Of a DNA stretch of 64,000 nt, positions 7,300-53,781 are shown in pieces. This stretch comes from Eledone cirrhosa (Eukaryota). The notes under the pieces were generated by a model. It was given only the letters and a program-made list of their open reading frames with translations. It was not told the origin of the DNA and made no database searches. The stretch lies in NCBI GenBank assembly GCA_964016885.1, contig OZ024747.1, positions 77,004,001-77,068,000 on the forward strand, in the 5' to 3' direction. The first letter of the stretch is position 1, and the number at the start of each line of letters is the position of its first letter. A program made the position numbers and the translations under genes.

Positions 7300-7535
7300 C
7301 ATTTATTTTGTTTTGACCGGTTTAGCTTGATTTGGTTTTTGGCTTAGGTGGTTAATGCCTTCTTGACCACCTTTTCAGTTTTGTATGGCTTCTTAACATA
7401 TTGTTTAGCTCTGGTTTTTAACTATGGCCCACTTTGCCAGTATCATTTCTGATTTTTGCGTTTCGCTTCGCTTTTCCTGCCCGCCGAAATGCGATTCTTG
7501 CTGAATCTTTATTTGTATATATATATATATATATA

Positions 7536-7716
7536 GCGAAAGAAAAGTGGTAAGGAACCAGGTGGACCATAACGCACCAAAGTACTCAATACTTAGGGTA
7601 GTAGAGTGGGTAATAGGAGTAAGTAAGACCCCGACGGCTGAGCTCAAGCCGTTTCGACGGCTAATTAGCCGCCGAAACGGCTTTAGCTCAGCCGTCGGGG
7701 TCTTACTTACTCCTAT
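7536..7716 (-). mobile_element. PLE pLTR-like remnant (family P1) with 52-bp palindromic arms, in (TA)n
   Basis: Homologous to 32809-32940 and 35914-35966. Palindrome 7613-7716 centred on ctaa|ttag with 2 mismatches; cgaaac hammerhead-like 3' half. Confidence 0.65.
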
Positions 7717-7794: not shown

Positions 7795-7942
7795 GTAGTG
7801 AAAGCGTGAAGAATAACATGGTGGGCTGTACAAAAAGGGCTTTATTTACAGTATTAACAATTGTTTCATTGATCAGGTGAGTCTAAAGGCCGCTGATCAC
7901 TTTTTGTACAGCCGACCATGTTATTCTTCACTCTTTCACTAC
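7795..7942 (-). mobile_element. pLTR-like remnant with 43-bp inverted repeats next to (TG)n
   Basis: 7795-7837 is the reverse complement of 7900-7942 (2 mismatches). The spacer on the minus strand reads tgatcag..ctgatca-at-gaaacaattgtta, i.e. hairpin, GAAA, palindromic stem III. Confidence 0.5.
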
Positions 7943-8140: not shown

Positions 8141-8275
8141 CAGGGCTTCTTGATGATTTCTCCAGAATGAAACAGTTCTAGTTCTGTAGAAGCCATTTCT
8201 ATATTAAATGTTTATACTCTGCTATGTATTGAGTACCTTACTTACTGTGGTTACCCCCGATTGAACCAGGATAAA

Positions 8276-8278
<3 letters not shown>
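8141..8278 (+). mobile_element. PLE pLTR-like remnant (family P2) in (TA)n
   Basis: tgatgatttctccagaatgaaacagttcta..gattgaaccaggataa; homologous to 35341-35473; (TA)n on both sides. Confidence 0.6.
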
Positions 8279-8324
<46 letters not shown>

Positions 8325-9325: not shown

Positions 9326-10505
9326 TAGATATGTTTCTTTATTAGCCACAGGGGCACAAAAGAAGGGGACAAATACAAAGTTTACATACAATAAATACGT
9401 GTAAAAAGATATGTTTCTTTTATTTGCCACTAGGGCATCAAAAGTGGGACAAGTACAAAGGGGGGAGTTTACACAAAAAGGCGTCCTCAATAAGGAGGAG
9501 GCAATAACAAAATATAAAAATAAAATAAGATATAACAAAAAATAAAATTTATAACAAAATCCTCAATAGAGAGGAGGCGCCTTGGGGGGTCGCACACACC
9601 CCCGAAAAAAGTGTGCAACCATTTTCCTCAGGAGCACAGAGAGGGGTGCTCCCTCGTTCCTTCCTCTTTTCCACCTACAGGCTTATGTAAAGAGAAGGCC
9701 CATTCACACGGGCCATTCTCGCCACTTTCACCCACCTTTCATAAAAACGACTGGGGTGGAGCACCTCTCTCTCCATCCTGATCCTTCTTCCGAAATGATA
9801 TCGGAAGAAACGGACCAGTTGTTGGCCAGAGAGAAAGGTGCCTGACCTCAGTCCTTTCAGACGCGTCCACCATACAACCTCTTTCGCCATGGCTATTACG
9901 CACAGAAACACCGCCTCTGCTTCATCTTTGAAGGGGGGAGGCGTCTTGATCATTACAATAGACTCGGTGGTCAACCGGATCGGTCCCACCCTTGACAGCA
10001 GTTGTTCGACATAGCCCCACAGATCGGCTACGCCCGAGCAGTGTACCAATGCGTGTGCAACGGTTTCCTCGTCGCACACGCATCTGGGACAGATCTTTTT
10101 GGCGGGGTCCCTACCCGGGCGCCCGTGTCTGTAGAGCCTTTCTCGAACGGGTAAAGCCTCTCGGTAGCACTGCCAGGCCAGGGACTTCTCGAAGTTGTCC
10201 ATAGGTCCCGGGCTGAATGTCCTACCGAACAGGCTGGCCAGTTCGTCCTCCTCCATGTCTAGGGCTTCTCCGAGGGCGTCGTCGCACCTGCTGCGTACCA
10301 GCCCTCTATAGAATGTTGCGGTGGAGTCTCCACTGATAACCGGATCCGCCTGCCAGAGGGCGGTGAGCGCCTGGGCACACTCAGTGTGCCAGGCGCCCAG
10401 TTTTCTCGGTCTTTGCTTGACCCAGGATTGCAGCTCGGTGAGTGAGACGAGTCTGGGAAAGGTTCGTCTCACAAACGAGGCCCACGCCGGTTGACCGGTG
10501 AGGAA
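9326..10505 (-). mobile_element. 5'-truncated L1/Tx1-clade LINE in a (GATA)n array
   Basis: Open ORF2 C-terminus 10500->9675 with LAWQCYREALPV and a CPRCVCDEETVAHALVHC zinc knuckle, GC-rich. 3' UTR ends aataaagaaacatatctatct. The 5' junction is fused to (TATC)n. Confidence 0.85.
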
Positions 10506-10512
10506 TACGTAG

Positions 10513-10581
10513 AGAGATAGATAGATAGATAGATAGATAGACAGATAGCTAGATAGATAGATAGACAGATAGATAGACAGG

Positions 10582-10666
<85 letters not shown>
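10513..10666. repeat. (GATA)n array
   Basis: Direct inspection. Confidence 0.95.
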
Positions 10667-10876
10667 CGACAGGTAGATAAGTAGGAAGGCTGGAAACTAC
10701 TTCTAATCGAGTGTGCACCGGGTGCAGAATAGCAATGTGCAACATTATTATTTTTATTTTATTTATTTTTGCCGCGTTTTTCATGTTTTCTTTTTCCTAA
10801 TGGGGTATGTAGTTGACATGGCGTCTACAGCTCACCTCACTCTCACAGACACCACATATCTTACACGGCTAACACC

Positions 10877-16570: not shown

Positions 16571-16585
16571 CAAACTTAGTTTTGT

Positions 16586-17713
16586 CTCAGACATAATTGA
16601 ACTACCTCAGACATAATTGAACCATCTCAGACATAATTGAACTACCTCAGACATAATTGAACCATCTCAGACATAATTGAACTACCTCAGACATAATTGA
16701 ACCATCTCAGACATAATTGAACTACCTCAGACATAATTGAACCATCTCAGACATAGTTGAACTACCTCAGACATAATTGAACCATCTCAGACATAATTGA
16801 ACTACCTCAGACATAATTGAACCATCTCAGACATAATTGAACTACCTCAGACTTAATTGAACCATCTCAGACATAATTGAACTACCTCAGACATAATTGA
16901 ACCATCTCAGACATAATTGAACTACCTCAGACATAATTGAACCATCTCAGACATAATTGAACTACCTCAGACATAATTGAACCATCTCAGACATAATTGA
17001 ACTACCTCAGACATAATTGAACCATCTCAGACATAATTGAACTACCTCAGACATAATTGAACCATCTCAGACATAATTGAACTACCTCAGACATAATTGA
17101 ACCATCTCAGACATAATTGAACTACCTCAGACATAATTGAACCATCTCAGACATAATTGAACTACCTCAGACATAATTGAACCATCTCAGACATAATTGA
17201 ACTACCTCAGACATAATTGAACCATCTCAGACATAATTGAACTACCTCAGACATAATTGAACCATCTCAGACATAATTGAACTACCTCAGACATAATTGA
17301 ACCATCTCAGACATAATTGAACTACCTCAGACATAATTGAACCATCTCAGACATAGTTGAACTACCTCAGACATAATTGAACCATCTCAGACATAATTGA
17401 ACCATCTCAGACATAATTGAACTACCTCAGACATAATTGAACTACCTCAGACATAATTGAACCATCTCAGACATAATTGAACCATCTCAGACATAATTGA
17501 ACTACCTCAGACATAATTGAACTACCTCAGACATAATTGAACCATCTCAGACATAATTGAACTACCTCAGACATAATTGAACCATCTCAGACATAATTGA
17601 ACTACCTCAGACATAATTGAACCATCTCAGACATAGTTGAACTACCTCAGACATAATTGAACCATCTCAGACATAATTGAACTACCTCAGACATAATTGA
17701 ACTACCTCAGACA
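16586..17713. repeat. 20-bp satellite with 40-bp dimer, ~56 monomers
   Basis: ctcagacataattgaactac and ctcagacataattgaaccat alternate. Confidence 0.98.
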
Positions 17714-32474: not shown

Positions 32475-32529
32475 ACTGCTATATATATTTCGGTGACAGC
32501 CATCTTTGGCTGTGACCTCTTCAGGCAGT
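32475..32529 (-). ncRNA. Minimal type I hammerhead ribozyme
   Basis: Minus strand: ACUGC-CUGAAGA-GGU c ACAGCCA aaga UGGCUGU c ACC-GAAA-UAUAUA-UA^GCAGU. Stem I is perfect, stem II has 10 bp, stem III is palindromic. Located in an insert between (TA)n tracts. Confidence 0.85.
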
Positions 32530-32706
32530 CCGAATTAGTAACCAAACCAACCTGCGCACTTCGTCGAGTGCTCCAATCTGCATACTGAGGTGTTGGTATA
32601 CAACCAACATATACTAAAAAAAAATATATATATATTTAAATATATATAGATATAAATATAGATATAGATAGATAGATAGATACATAGATATAGACATACA
32701 CACACA

Positions 32707-32756
<50 letters not shown>

Positions 32757-32808
32757 CATATGTATATACATGAATATATATAAATATGTATATATATATA
32801 GAGTCCAG

Positions 32809-32938
32809 AATTAGCCGTCGAAACGGCTTGAGCTCAGCTGTCGGGGTCTTACTGGTTCCTATTACCCACTCTACTACCTCAAGTATCGAGTACTTTGGTG
32901 CGTTATGGTCCACCTGGTTCCTTACCACATTTCCTTCG

Positions 32939-32940
<2 letters not shown>
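32809..32940 (+). mobile_element. pLTR-like remnant (family P1) in (TA)n
   Basis: Reverse-complement homolog of 7536-7668. Confidence 0.65.
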
Positions 32941-32997
<57 letters not shown>

Positions 32998-33000
32998 CAT

Positions 33001-33822
<822 letters not shown>

Positions 33823-33890
33823 ATTAAGCTCTGTTGCTTACAAAGAGCACTCTTTTTTCCTGGACTTTTCCGACGGAATTACTTCATTCA

Positions 33891-33924
<34 letters not shown>

Positions 33925-34956: not shown

Positions 34957-35307
34957 TCTACATATCACGTCTACATATCGATTCAGTGGTACCGAGATTT
35001 ATTCATCGACAGATATAGATCTCTCCCTCTCACATATCTTTCCACACAATCACTCACAAAATGTATTAATCATATGAATATATAAGTGCATAAACACACA
35101 CAGACACAAACACACATACAAACAAACACATATATATACATATGTGTCTGTGTGTGTGTCTGTGTGTGTGTCTGTGTGTGCATGTGCAGGCATGTTTCCA
35201 GTCCTTCTCTTTGAACGATATCCATTATACATACGTTATATATTCATATTAACGCATGTACTTTTGTCAATATTAAAAACACATAAGACATATATATTAA
35301 AATACAT

Positions 35308-35625
<318 letters not shown>

Positions 35626-35867: not shown

Positions 35868-35913
<46 letters not shown>

Positions 35914-35917
<4 letters not shown>

Positions 35918-35966
35918 AACGAGTAGGACCCCGACGGCTGAGCTCAAGCCGTTTCGACGGCTAATT
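35914..35966 (-). mobile_element. pLTR-like remnant (family P1) in (TA)n
   Basis: Matches 7613-7666. Confidence 0.6.
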
Positions 35967-38770: not shown

Positions 38771-38905
38771 TTCCTACTATATCTAGCGTAAAACCAATGT
38801 ATTCCTTGAGTGTTGTTTGCTTTGTTTCTGTTTACGTTTCTTTTTGCACATACACACATATACACACACATAGATAGATATATAAATATTTATATATATA
38901 TATAT

Positions 38906-39004
<99 letters not shown>

Positions 39005-39035
39005 ATTAATAAATGGAAACTATATTTATAAAACC

Positions 39036-39111
39036 ATATTTATTTCATTATATATATTTCAAGGATACCAAGTTAAATCATGGTATGCCTTCATCAGACA
39101 AAATACAATAT
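39036..39111 (-). ncRNA. Minimal hammerhead ribozyme (inverted copy)
   Basis: Exact reverse complement of 39250-39325. Confidence 0.75.
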
Positions 39112-39249
39112 ATAACAGTTTTACAAATAGATATTGACGTACCCTTTCAAAAAGGTGACCGTTGTTTTTGGAGGCCATCCGGATGGCCTCCAAAAACAAC
39201 GGTCACCTTTTTGAAAGGGTACGTCAATATCTATTTGTAAAACTGTTAT

Positions 39250-39325
39250 ATATTGTATTTTGTCTGATGAAGGCATACCATGATTTAACTTGGTATCCTT
39301 GAAATATATATAATGAAATAAATAT
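39250..39325 (+). ncRNA. Minimal type I hammerhead ribozyme
   Basis: UAUUUUGU-CUGAUGA-AGG c AUACCA loop UGGUAU c CUU-GAAA-UAUAUA-UA^AUGAAAUA. Confidence 0.8.
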
Positions 39326-39450
39326 GGTTTTATAAATATAGTTTCCATTTATTAATATTGTATATCTACTCCAATTATTTGTCGAGTGCTTTATATCAGT
39401 TATAATAATATTTTCTTGTTGTATCCCAACAATTTAAATAGAACTTTTGC

Positions 39451-39492
<42 letters not shown>

Positions 39493-39931
39493 GCACTTGA
39501 CCAAGCCGGTATGAATTTTTTTTCTCTCTCTCTCGTCTGCGACTTCACAGAACTTATGTTTACCGAATTCGCAGACCAGACCCTTTCTTCCTCCCGATAG
39601 ACCTGTGCGAAATTCCTTCCTTGCTCACATTTCAACCAGGTTTGATGGTCTTTATTCTCTCGTTCACGATTTCACCGAATTTATATTCATAGAAATCTGG
39701 GACTTGTTTCCTTCTTCATCACTTTCTGTTGCTTAAACCATTTTGTTTGTTTACCCTAGCGCCCCCTTTATTTACGTGTCCCAACGACTTTTTTTTAGCC
39801 GTTGCTCGCACCAACCTGAGGTATATGGCCTTTAATGCGACGAAATGCCTACGACGGTTGGATGGCCACTGATGAGGACAAACTTTTTCATATGTAACCC
39901 ATTTGCAGCGCCGCAGCTCCATTATTATCAT

Positions 39932-45002: not shown

Positions 45003-45119
45003 GTGAGTAAATTGTATCTGTGTGAGACGTGCCCATGTATATATGGATGAAAATCATAAACGTACATGTATATGCATGTAAAATAACTGTATATATTTCA
45101 AATGAATGTACGTCTAACT

Positions 45120-45623
45120 CCTGTATATATGTGTATATAGTTGTAATATCTGTGCAGGTGCACTATGTATATGAGTGTGTAACATGTATTTGTGAATATG
45201 TGTGTAATGTATTATGTATCTTTGAAATCTGTCATATAATATAATTGTTTCTGCTTTTGGCACAAGGCCAGCAAATACCCAGTGTATTACTGGTACTTTA
45301 TTTTATCGACCCCGTAAGGATGAAAGACAAAGTTAAACTCGGCGGGATTTGAACTCAGACCATAAAGTTACGGCACTTTATGGTCTGAGTTCAAATCCGG
45401 CCAAAGTTAACTTTACCTTTCATCCTTACGGGGTCGATAAAATAAAGTACCAGTAACACACTGGGTATTTGCTGGCCTTGTGCCAAAAGTAGAAACAATT
45501 ATATTATATGACAGATTTCACAGATACATAATACATTACACACATATTCACAAATACATGTTACACACTCATATACATAGTGCACCTGCACAGATATTAC
45601 AACTATATACACATATATACAGG
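45120..45623. repeat. Inverted repeat: two head-to-head 5'-truncated family A SINEs plus 121 bp of mirrored flank
   Basis: Arms 45120-45368 and 45375-45623, loop tacggc. Confidence 0.95.
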
Positions 45624-45854
45624 ACCTATGTGTCATGTAATGTAATATATAACTGTTAGCAGTAATTATTTCGGTTCGGTGTTCTTTGAGTTCAAATCTC
45701 GGCGAAATCCATTTTGCCTTTCATCTTTTCAAGGTCTATAAAATAATTTCTAGTCGAGGGAAGGGGTGAGTTGGTGAAATCATTTAGAGCCTCAAACGAG
45801 AAACTTTACAATATTTGTATCGACGCTGTATGTCCTGGGTTCTAGTCCTCCTTT

Positions 45855-47106: not shown

Positions 47107-47863
<757 letters not shown>

Positions 47864-47910
47864 GTATCTTGCTCCAATACTGTTGAGCGCTTTATATTAT
47901 AACTGAAAAA

Positions 47911-49494
47911 ATGGAATTCTTTAAGATTACTTCCTCTTTAAAAGACATACCTCTACCTAGAAACAAAGACTTTATAAAACAATTAATAGATAAATCTGAC
48001 TCTTTTATAAGGAGAATCAGGTGGCGAGCATTCCACTTTGATAAATCTAATATAAATGAAAATGTCTCGGACTTAAACAAAGTTTTCAAATCTAAAAGAA
48101 ATCCACCCCCTAACAAACTTTTATCTGACTTTGAAAACGATATAATCTCTATCATACAAGGGGTCAAATTCAAGAGAAACTTCAAAGGCCAGGAATATCT
48201 GAAAGGCATTAAGGATAATATTGAGAGCTTAGAGAAAACTGAGAAGATCTTAGTGAAATCTGACAAGACCAACAACCTCTATGGAGTGCAGAAAGACATG
48301 TATAATGGCCTCATACTGAAGGAACTGAGGAAAAAGTACAAGGTAGCAGATAAGGCCGAGCTTGAGAAAATGAATGTCGAAGCATCTTGTATAATGCACG
48401 AGTTGGAAATTGAGAACAGAACACAACCTTTCGTGCCCAGGAAACCGAAGATCAATATGAAAGATCACAAAAGGAATTTTGAAAATGACTTGCCAGTTAG
48501 ATTGATCGCACCATCAAAATCGGACCTGGGCAAATTAAGCAAAAACATTCTTGACAGGGTGATACAGCAAATTAAGAACTTGGATTGTTTACCTAACCTG
48601 AGCTTGTGGAAGGGAACTGGAGAGGTTGTTGAGTGGTTTAAGCAAATTAAATATAACAATAATAATAAGTTTATTCAACTTGATATTGCTAACTATTATT
48701 CTTCTATTACCCCTAATCTACTAAATAAGGCACTAAATTACGCATTCAAACATACAGACCTAACTAGCAATGAAATGCACATTATATTATCGGCTAGGAA
48801 AATATTGATAGAATTTAATGACCAACTATGGACCAGAGCAGATAGAGATAGCAATTTTGACATTACTATGGGATCATCCGACTCAGCTCAGGTAACTGAC
48901 CTTGTGGGCTTATTTTTAATCAATTCGCTACATAGGAAAATACCTGGTACTACCGGAGGTTTATATAGAGATGACATGCTTTTACTTATTGATAATAATA
49001 ACTCTGAACTAAATAGAAGAAGAAAACAAATTACACAATTTTTTAATTACTTTAATCTTAAAATAGAAATTGAGAACAACCATAGAATAGTCAATTTCCT
49101 AGATATAACATTAAATCTCAACACATGTCTTCACTATCCTTTTCACAAGTTGAATGAAAACTTAAACTATGTCAGCTTTAACTCTAACCACCCCAGATCT
49201 GTCAAAAACACTATAGTAAACTCTGTTCAAAAACGTATCTCTAGAATCTCGTCTAATAGAAAGATTTTCGACGAAAAAGCCCAGTACTACAATGAAGCGT
49301 TAGCTAGAGCAGGATATAGTGATAAGATTATGTACATAGATAATGATAGACAAACTAAACAAAATAACAACTATTTTAATTACGGCAACAACCTTAACAA
49401 CTATAATAGAAAGCATTACAATAATTCCAAAAGCCAAAAAAGAAATAGAACTAGGAACATAATATGGTTTGCCCCCCCCCCCCTTTCTCACTAA
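47911..49494 (+). CDS. Penelope-like reverse transcriptase (N-terminal part of single ORF)
   Basis: KSDKT, PKINMKDHK, PVRLI, LDIANYYSSI, ITMGS, YRDD, VNFLDI, SNHP motifs; frame breaks in the C12 run at 49472-49483. Confidence 0.92.
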   Translation: MEFFKITSSLKDIPLPRNKDFIKQLIDKSDSFIRRIRWRAFHFDKSNINENVSDLNKVFKSKRNPPPNKLLSDFENDIISIIQGVKFKRNFKGQEYLKGIKDNIESLEKTEKILVKSDKTNNLYGVQKDMYNGLILKELRKKYKVADKAELEKMNVEASCIMHELEIENRTQPFVPRKPKINMKDHKRNFENDLPVRLIAPSKSDLGKLSKNILDRVIQQIKNLDCLPNLSLWKGTGEVVEWFKQIKYNNNNKFIQLDIANYYSSITPNLLNKALNYAFKHTDLTSNEMHIILSARKILIEFNDQLWTRADRDSNFDITMGSSDSAQVTDLVGLFLINSLHRKIPGTTGGLYRDDMLLLIDNNNSELNRRRKQITQFFNYFNLKIEIENNHRIVNFLDITLNLNTCLHYPFHKLNENLNYVSFNSNHPRSVKNTIVNSVQKRISRISSNRKIFDEKAQYYNEALARAGYSDKIMYIDNDRQTKQNNNYFNYGNNLNNYNRKHYNNSKSQKRNRTRNIIWFAPPPLSH

Positions 49495-50129
49495 ACATTA
49501 AAACCCACATCGCTAAACTATTTTTTAAAGCTCTTGATAATCGCTTCCCTAGAACACATAGGTATCACTCAATTTTCAATAGACATACTATAAAATTAAC
49601 CTACTCATCCACCAAAAATTTAGCACAAAATATTAATAGAATAAATAATAGGAACTTAAAACCTAGCGATAATAGCATAAATAATATACAAGTTAACAAA
49701 TGTAACTGTAGAGATAGATCTAAATGTCCGTTAAATAACAACTGCTTAGTTAAAAATATAATATACAATTGTAATGTTAAAACTGACTCTAATTCTTTTA
49801 ACTACGTCGGTTCCACATCGACGGAATTTAAACTTCGATATAATAACCACAAGAATTCTTTCACAGATCCAAGCAAAAAATCTTCAACAGCACTATCAGG
49901 CGTACTCTGGCAACTTAGGCTAGATAACGTTAGATATTCGACGGCTTGGAATATAGTCTCAAGAGGAATTCCTTTTAATTCATCCTCTGAGACATGTGAC
50001 CTCTGCGCAGAGGAGATATTCTTTATACTAAAATCTAAAAATTCCCTTAATCTACGGACAAATTTATTCAGTTGCTGCAAACATAGATTAAACTTAACTT
50101 TTAAATATAAATTTAAATTTAAAACGTAG
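49464..50129 (+). CDS. Penelope-like linker plus GIY-YIG endonuclease (frameshifted continuation)
   Basis: PPFSLNIKT, IFNRHTIKLTYS, CNCRDRSKCP..C, NIIY..YVGST..FKLRYNNH, CDLC..E, CKH. Confidence 0.9.
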   Translation: MVCPPPPFSLNIKTHIAKLFFKALDNRFPRTHRYHSIFNRHTIKLTYSSTKNLAQNINRINNRNLKPSDNSINNIQVNKCNCRDRSKCPLNNNCLVKNIIYNCNVKTDSNSFNYVGSTSTEFKLRYNNHKNSFTDPSKKSSTALSGVLWQLRLDNVRYSTAWNIVSRGIPFNSSSETCDLCAEEIFFILKSKNSLNLRTNLFSCCKHRLNLTFKYKFKFKT

Positions 50130-51107
50130 TATATTTAGTTTGATTTATAATTATTTGGGAAACTAGCCGATAAATCTTTCGATTTCTTCTTTTTATTCTT
50201 CTTTTTATTTTTATTTTTATTTAAACATTCTTCATGAAAAATTAAACTACCCTAAAAGTTGATGCTCCAAATATTTCGAATAAACGTTACACTAGATAAA
50301 CTTCTATATTAAATATAAGAACACATGTAGACCAAATGGGCATCCTAAACTTTTTGAAATGATTTTTGCTAGACGCGATTTGATAAATAATCTTTAGCTT
50401 TATCTGCTTTCGACTCTGATGCTTATAATGAACTTGGCAATATATTGTCAATTAATTTTTGATGGGTTGATCTTTGTGGTCGATTTGCGTGGCATATTAT
50501 GTTTCTATTATGTTTTTATTTTTATTATTGTAATATTTTCTAATATTTTTATTTTTAATATGTAATATTTTTTAGTTTTCTATTTTATTATTATTTATTA
50601 TTATTATTATTATTTTTTGTTTTTGTTTCTGATATTTTTTATTAATATATTGAAATCTGTTCTCTATTTCTGCTTGATAGATAATCATGTAGAGTAAAGA
50701 CAAGAATAGTATTGTTAAAATTAATATAGACTCTATATATATGTGTATATATATACACATATATGTATACTTAAATTTTTATAGCACAATGAGAATGTTC
50801 TCCGTGTGAAATAGGGGTTTGCAGAGTTGATCACGTAAATTCACATCGATGTTTGGAGTTATCATATAAACATATGAATTTTTAAAACTAAACATAAGAT
50901 CATTACTTTTCACACATTATGGATACGTGTCTCATTCAGGAATACTGATATTTACATTATAGTGCCTGGTTTTTATACATACTAATACTTCTACATTAAA
51001 ACATAGGGTTTTTAAATTTTGCCTCGCCTATGTCTGGTTACTTTTCATTTTTCTCTCTATGTAACGGCTGTTTTCTTTCCTAACCACATATATCTCCCTT
51101 ACATTAA

Positions 51108-51637
51108 TACTAGAGCTAAATAAATAAATAAATAAATAAATGTATCATTGATACGTTCATTCAACGGATGTCCAACTATCTATTTCCTCTCTCTATATAT
51201 ATCTCTATCTGTTTCTTTACATGAAGTTCTTCTCTTTATCTATCTTTCCATCTCTCTATTTTGTTGCATGCATTTCTTCTTTTTCTTCTTTTTCTTCGTT
51301 TTCTTTCTTTCTTTTCTTTCTTTCCTTCTTTCTCTCTTTCTTTCTTTCTGTTTACAATTTTTCACTGCCAAATCAACTTTTTCAAATACAAGTCGATGTT
51401 GAACGGTATGTCAAATCTATTTATCTATAAAACTGTCTATATTGTATTTTGTCTGAGGAAGGCATAACATATTGTTAATATGATATCCCTGAAATATATA
51501 TAATGAAATAAATATGGTTTTATAAATATAGTTTCCATTTATTTAATATCGTAAATATACTCCAAATACTTGTTGAGTGCTTTTATATCAGTTATAAATA
51601 TTTACTAGTTGTAACCCAACAATTTAAATATAACTTT

Positions 51638-51641
<4 letters not shown>
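51108..51641 (+). repeat. 3' pLTR
   Basis: Direct repeat of 47331-47863. Confidence 0.95.
51439..51515 (+). ncRNA. Minimal type I hammerhead ribozyme in 3' pLTR
   Basis: Identical to 47661-47737. Confidence 0.8.
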
Positions 51642-53489: not shown

Positions 53490-53537
<48 letters not shown>

Positions 53538-53746
53538 TATTATCTACGAACAGAATGGAAAATACATAGAAATTAAAAGGATTATGGTTTTCACTCTGGT
53601 GGTATTATATTTCTTATAATTGAACACATGCTTCTTTGCGTATTTTGCTCTATATGGTGTATTATAAAGAGCCCACTATCTATTCCTTGAGCTCATTAAA
53701 TTATAGGGGTTTAATGTGAGTCTTTAACTCCGTTTTTTTTAATTTG

Positions 53747-53781
<35 letters not shown>

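Follow-up and report, generated by a model that had tools for sequence, protein, structure and literature searches.

The 64,000-nucleotide stretch of Eledone cirrhosa DNA analyzed here (the window) harbors a perfect palindrome at 38996-39365, built from two 185-bp arms with no mismatch and no spacer between them. These arms are by far the longest of any perfect nonmicrosatellite palindrome in the 64-kb window, the next being 17 and 14 bp. The left, inverted arm (38996..39180, minus strand) is a pLTR copy that lacks a tail and ends at a stereotyped short end, the mirror of 39360-39365, while the right, direct arm (39181..39365, plus strand) is a 5'-truncated pLTR that shares 86% identity with an element at 47 kb from 39215 on. 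The two meet without a spacer at TCC/GGA (39180/39181), and this center (39177..39184) is probably a self-complementary template site of 6 to 8 nt. The right arm then continues, with no mirror image, into a one-sided tail of 88 to 91 nt (39366..39456, plus strand; end at 39453/6), the final 3 nt of which are common to the adjoining repeat. The insert is bounded by (TA)n target sequence at 38870..39000 on the left and 39454..39490 on the right, with microhomology of 5 nt at the left end (the last 5 nt of the tract are common to the arm end) and 3 nt at the right end. Because both flanks are (TA)n, a TSD is not discernible, and Craig et al. (PMC8557442) note the same limit on TSD calling.

A first-pass annotation had described this locus as a recent, spacerless perfect palindrome of ≈370 bp that is embedded in (TA)n and spans 38996..39452. 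The palindrome, its start and its (TA)n setting are all borne out, but its end is misplaced, as 39452 falls within the nonpalindromic tail. Recent origin is plausible: 0 mismatches of 185 correspond to an arm divergence below 1.6% (95% bound), unless hairpin-type conversion has homogenized the arms. What that annotation overlooked is the one-sided tail on the right arm, and the fact that an inverted pLTR together with a tail is the standard published form of a PLE insertion.

The palindrome is very probably a young, 5'-truncated Hydra-clade PLE insertion of the "inverted pLTR + direct pLTR + tail" form in (TA)n. Over ≈250 nt it is 86% identical to each of the two pLTRs at 47 kb, with similarity dropping 5' of 39215, in agreement with the earlier description of a sister pLTR related to, yet distinct from, that at 47 kb. 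This reference relative, which lies outside the insert, is a near-full-length element (47333..51640, plus strand) with pLTRs at ≈47333-47867 and 51108-51640 that are 99.3% alike. Its RT frame (47911-49491, plus strand) and EN frame (49455-50126, plus strand) are broken as a continuous reading by a frameshift near a C-run. The frames harbor RWR (a variant of RWK) at 37, DKT at 118, CNCRDRSKC, CDLC, and CKH, as well as YRDD and YVG motifs (RT + GIY-YIG type). The RWR, DKT, CxCX5C, CxxC, and CxH motifs, together with the hammerhead in the pLTR and the (TA)n target, would place the element in the Hydra clade, an assignment that rests on motifs and that follows the definition given in PMC8557442 (RWK, DKT, a CxCX5C linker, and CxxC + CxH in EN). 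Look-alike clusters in the Atlas are eukaryotic (scores of 0.94-0.97), and some contain RVT_1 (16-20% of members) or GIY-YIG (23%). A Pfam scan returned no family for the RT and EN frames of the 47-kb element (one of the six proteins scanned matched, to the unrelated zf-RVT), and searches for RT relatives gave six pattern matches in viral contigs and 55 in prokaryote genomes, none of which was confirmed. Elsewhere in the window, an open frame at 9675-10796 (minus strand) matches zf-RVT with an E value of 8.5e-6, below the curated cutoff, and is probably the 3' end of a LINE. The palindromic insert itself encodes nothing.

Each arm carries a minimal hammerhead motif. The type I motif in the direct arm (39256..39320, plus strand; core at 39264, predicted cut after 39312) consists of an 8-bp helix I, CUGAUGA, a helix II with a C.C mismatch, GAAA, and a short palindromic helix III, with all parts of the core (CUGANGA, GAAA, UH, helices I and II, and palindromic helix III) present; its mirror copy occupies 39041..39105 on the minus strand (core at 39097, predicted cut after 39049). 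The G10.1-C11.1 closing pair is absent, and helix II is closed by A-U in both the 39-kb and 47-kb copies (columns 22/52 of their alignment). A search of Rfam gave no match at gathering score, and the monomer hammerhead fold is no better than that of shuffled sequences (z of -0.87). Of the 12 helix II pairs compared between these two sequences, seven are invariant, one has changed on one side (G-U/G-C), one has changed on both sides (G-C/A-U, columns 33/41), and three are broken in one copy; covariation across helix II does not beat shuffles in this two-sequence comparison (249/500). The stem II difference previously read as compensatory is in fact C-G in one copy and an unpaired A.A in the other (columns 29/45). 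A candidate match to the hammerhead motif in the JGI metagenomes (one match, L001) was judged to be due to chance, since neither helix II nor GAAA follows.

The motif is indeed found on both DNA strands, but "a ribozyme on each strand", as first proposed, does not follow from this arrangement, as a transcript across the center pairs the motif with its mirror arm. Computed energies are -101.9 kcal/mol for motif against mirror arm and -2.8 kcal/mol for the monomer hammerhead fold. Because a center-crossing transcript would bury the motif in duplex, the two hammerhead motifs of the palindrome are, on these modeled energies, most likely passive, and transcription through the insert would be predicted to yield, in place of an active ribozyme, a dsRNA hairpin of 185 bp. 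In DNA, the palindrome is a potential cruciform adjoining (TA)n. In a hammerhead dimer, U.G wobbles would be retained by 39308 A>G, the helix III variant seen most often in the family. Pairs of minimal hammerheads on opposite strands, 100 to 700 bp apart, were already mentioned by Cervera and De la Pena in 2014 (PMC4209133).

The arrangement at 39 kb is a recognized one. PMC8557442 lists, among features common in PLEs, an inverted 5'-truncated copy beside the pLTR and a one-ended tail of 30-40 bp. PMC8969392 gives the same features for curators, and Arkhipova et al. in 2013 (PMC3846280) described head-to-head pLTRs in which the inverted member is the shorter of the two and palindromes occur where they meet. 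The 39-kb palindrome is thus an ordinary by-product of a known PLE insertion form. Within the window, five of the seven inverted pairs examined have a one-sided tail, these being the inserts at 1.9, 7.6, 33, 35, and 39 kb, whereas the 45-kb and 7.8-kb pairs lack PLE anatomy. The arms are separated by 26 nt in the 1.9-kb insert (1/24 arm mismatches), by no spacer in the 7.6-kb palindrome (2/52 arm mismatches), and by 4 nt with 2 nt of microhomology in the 35-kb insert; the 33-kb insert has 240-bp arms around (CA)n/(TG)n plus an insert. The 33-kb insert has hammerheads on both strands and the 35-kb insert on one. A hammerhead scan of the 7.6-kb family found none, and anatomy is what identifies this family as a PLE.

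These inserts belong to several families. The head-to-head insert at 33036-33900, from another hammerhead-bearing family, has the motif on both strands and its tail on the right, and its (CA)n/(TG)n center contains an inserted fragment of a 35-kb-family tail (≈33410-33469). A family with a long helix III is represented at 35291-35527 by a palindrome with 54-bp arms and a 4-nt spacer that turns at helix I, at 8147-8323 by a solo copy in which C3 is changed to U, and at 1893-2050 by an older asymmetric head-to-head copy. The copies at 7510-7716, 32800-32945, and 35897-35966 share PLE-like anatomy and a tail hairpin (see below), with no hammerhead in the scan, and all have 5' ends ≈10 nt or less from the same AATT site. 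A further minimal hammerhead at 32480-32530 (minus strand) lies in a short stub terminating in simple repeats; it comes from a different family and has the same helix III as the 39-kb motif. The inverted pair at 7795-7942 has 43-bp arms (41 positions match) and a 62-nt spacer and lies beside (TG)n. The inverted duplication at 45119-45624 (506 bp, 241/250 pairs matching, 6-nt spacer) includes part of the common SINE of the window, has mismatches clustered near its center with almost identical outer arms, and has neither a tail nor (TA)n ends. By its resemblance, this SINE points to a molluscan host, possibly an octopus. Finally, a young tandem array at 16585-17713 consists of 28 copies of a 40-bp unit with 97% matches.

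Just past the short end, the 39-kb tail begins with a hairpin of the form RCTC-(3 bp)-loop-(3 bp)-NN-GAGY (39368..39387, plus strand; 2-7 nt past that end). This motif occurs nine times in the window against 0.87 expected (maximum of three in 60 shuffles), a contrast that overstates the case, since the motif was defined after its instances had been seen and pairing is built into the pattern. The real evidence is its positional regularity. Eight of the nine hairpins begin a tail, and they come from four repeat families in which the inner stems differ and the outer pair is A-U or G-C. The distance from the short arm end to the hairpin is 2 nt at 39 kb, 5 nt at 7.6 kb, 5 nt at 33 kb, and 12 nt at 35 kb. 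In the 1.9-kb insert, which is older, the hairpin is degenerate and lies 22 nt past the short end. The ninth hairpin is found in a (TA)n-flanked 215-nt stub (53536-53750), ≈100 nt from its right end; a hammerhead scan of this stub found none.

A second, degenerate tail hairpin is known from one element, that at 47 kb (47871..47888, plus strand), where the inner stem has 2 bp and the outer pair is changed from A-U to G-C. It lies 7 to 9 nt past the joint between the 3' pLTR and (TA)n and 3 to 6 nt past the equivalent of the 39-kb tail end. A MAFFT alignment of 10 hairpins misaligns two of the rows. In the MFE fold of this region, 10-nt complementary stretches at 47810-47819 and 47897-47906 could close the tail and the second hairpin into one putative RNA domain, located directly before the ATG at 47911.

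We compared 39141-39930 with four of the 22 sequencing runs listed, none of the 22 being an RNA run: X1, possibly the assembly's own sample; X4, another sample under the same species label; X5, from another organism; and X20, RAD reads from another individual. The PLE family of the 39-kb palindrome is abundant and diverse in all four, with 7824 (X1), 1074 (X4), 118 (X5), and 34,501 (X20) records aligned to this interval. The right flank (39491-39930) is itself a multicopy repeat, present in 4/4 of these runs. Among the 24 loose ends listed of 581, those running into (TA)n fall at 39365 (54 contigs) and 39358 (58 contigs) of the 7824 X1 records, at 39350 in 4774 of 34,501 X20 reads, and in the 39350-39365 zone in 1 of 118 X5 contigs. 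The left arm therefore stops at a family-typical end and at no random point.

Among the 15 joints listed of 25, 11 connect opposite strands inside the element, at many positions. Record 9 of X4, the one listed joint with a visible orientation, runs antisense down to 39177 and then sense from 39227, and is thus a sister head-to-head junction in an independent sample; a joint in X1 (39183>39238) can be taken as a head-to-head connection of 39178 with 39238. Taken together, these two records suggest that the template continues past the center as a self-complementary site of 6 to 8 nt, but an equally good reading is that both arose by deletion within a palindrome centered here. The orientation of nine opposite-strand joints in X20 is not visible; they may include library chimeras and lend weak support. 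Depth at 39141-39167 is 866 (X1), 0 (X4), 0 (X5), and 0.44 (X20), figures to which mirror-arm contigs can contribute and for which RAD covers few loci, and among the records listed, none demonstrably spans the center of the 39-kb locus. A cluster of joints at 39245-39247, considered as the 5' end of the RNA, was dropped, as it may reflect an alignment break against a 47-kb-like subfamily.

We consider it probable that the palindrome was made by twin target-primed reverse transcription. The anatomy, the family, the stereotyped ends, and the hairpin positions are observed. A PLE protein, probably a dimer, would nick both strands of (TA)n, and one 3' end would prime at the tail end (39453-6) with the other priming at the short site (39360-5). 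Each priming site would lie directly 5' of an RCTC..GAGY hairpin, which would position the enzyme. Both cDNAs would then extend toward the 5' end of the RNA on identical pLTR templates, halt near 39177-39181, anneal via their identical self-complementary ends, and be filled in, giving a spacerless palindrome with a one-sided tail and one passive hammerhead motif per strand. We infer the order of these events, the role of the hairpin, the dimer, and the annealing step. The model is supported by the stereotyped short end, the solo copies, the hairpin positions, the one-sided tails in 5/7 inverted pairs, and the X4 junction. In the 7.6-kb family, one solo copy (35.9 kb) terminates precisely at the short end and lacks an inverted partner, a second (32.9 kb) terminates at the tail end, and both of these ends occur in the 7.6-kb palindrome. 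Twin priming is further favored by the work of Frangieh et al. in 2024 (PMC11167929), where, in the portion covered here, a PLE protein (PAc, Poseidon) cut and extended both target strands in vitro and was modeled as a dimer, and reverse transcription started at two internal sites, the interval between which is the tail. That element is of the Poseidon and not the Hydra clade, a point against the model.

The serious rival is a fold-back mechanism, which we regard as rather unlikely. Here a single TPRT event would begin at the tail end, the 3' end of the cDNA would snap back at a short palindrome of the template and copy itself, and an endonuclease that recognizes the tail hairpin in DNA or RNA would resolve the product at the short site. 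Arms made in this way are identical by construction, and the 35-kb insert, with its 4-nt spacer and 2-nt microhomology, has the textbook shape of a looped fold-back, to which the asymmetric X4 junction also conforms; the portions of PMC3846280 and PMC8557442 covered here likewise favor self-priming at palindromic junctions and EN-mediated resolution of the tail, respectively. Set against this are the spacerless center of the 7.6-kb palindrome, which lies on a natural 4-nt palindrome of the template (AATT) that is too short to form a loop, the solo copies that stop at the short site and have no inverted counterpart, and the equivalence of the tail with the interval between two RT starts in vitro. 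Twin priming has its own difficulties beyond the shape of the 35-kb insert and the published readings, in that none of the listed records demonstrably spans the 39-kb center junction, the second hairpin is degenerate and comes from one element, and the two asymmetric near-center junctions also fit deletions.

A different origin, as a nonautonomous mini-element of palindromic form (MITE-like or retrozyme-like) propagated as a prefabricated unit whose center is fixed, would explain why the center position recurs in two further junctions, in each of which one arm ends 3-4 nt past it (X4 record 9 and X1 39183>39238). These junctions are asymmetric and unlike each other, the opposite-strand joints noted above lie at many positions, all five inserts in the window have different centers and spacers, and an RNA of palindromic sequence would be paired along its whole length, which together make such an element improbable. 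More improbable still is an assembly or library artifact in the form of a fold-back chimera: although no read or contig among the listed records is shown to span the 39-kb center, and the best-matching runs may derive from the sample used for the assembly, the mirror leaves out the tail and flanks and halts exactly at the family-typical end, sister palindromes carry arm mismatches (at 7.6 and 1.9 kb), and an independent sample has a sister head-to-head junction. We attach as little weight to a plain solo stub that later underwent inverted duplication via DNA repair or replication template switching beside fragile (TA)n; the window does have an inverted duplication that lacks PLE features (45119-45624), but repair would not be expected to halt, in one family after another, at the stereotyped short end with the hairpin 2-7 nt further on.

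As a routine PLE insertion form, the 39-kb palindrome is of small importance on its own, and the tail hairpin is the sole new lead, one that may mark where the PLE enzyme begins copying. According to PMC8557442, it is an open question how PLEs make their tail and inverted pLTR. The hairpin past the short end in four families, with the degenerate second copy past the tail end, suggests two RT starts joined at a self-complementary site. We tentatively propose, as a possibility that falls short of probable, that a duplicated covarying RCTC..GAGY hairpin is a cis-element that places two protomers of a (TA)n-targeting PLE, each setting an RT start 2 to 12 nt upstream, such that the tail would correspond to the interhairpin spacing and the palindromes to twin-priming products joined at self-complementary sites. 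If true, this would provide one sequence-level account of the tail and the inverted pLTR, two unexplained hallmarks of PLEs. A literature search found no description of a duplicated tail hairpin or of twin priming for PLEs in the portions of the sources covered; Pyatkov 2004, Evgen'ev and Arkhipova 2005, and Arkhipova 2006 may bear on this point. A conserved hairpin beside both junctions offers a defined target for mutation in the in vitro system already available, and such inserts are dense enough in this genome for twin priming to be tested against fold-back by computation alone.

In L1 twin priming, two target ends prime two cDNAs that are joined head to head, and the arms are nonoverlapping parts of one RNA. 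The 39-kb arms, in contrast, overlap fully and start at fixed sites. PAc, the Poseidon element characterized in vitro (PMC11167929), offers a closer parallel, as it shares two internal RT starts that bound the tail, an AT-rich target, cutting and extension of both strands, and a start in a stem-loop; it differs in clade (Poseidon versus Hydra) and in that the hairpin here lies just 3' of each junction and is duplicated, and inverted inserts are not addressed in the parts of that study covered. Relative to the metazoan PLE minimal hammerheads of PMC4209133, the candidate motif at 39 kb shares the conserved core, a long helix II, and a short palindromic helix III suited to dimers, whereas its helix I is 8 bp and A-U closes helix II, where G10.1-C11.1 is called highly conserved in that work. 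The 47-kb relative shares its motifs, hammerhead, and (TA)n target with the Hydra clade of PMC8557442, and differs in having a long pLTR, a frameshifted ORF, and a unit of ≈3.8 kb between pLTR starts, as compared with "generally <3 kb". Finally, the 39-kb palindrome shares with the EN+ PLE insertions described in PMC3846280 and PMC8557442 a head-to-head 5'-truncated inverted copy, a junction palindrome, a simple-repeat target, an inverted arm shorter than the direct arm, and a tail at one end. It differs from the insertions described in those sources in its 88-91 nt tail (30-40 bp as published) and in arms that overlap completely with zero spacer, and, with neither an ORF nor a second direct pLTR, corresponds to a minimal version of the same form.
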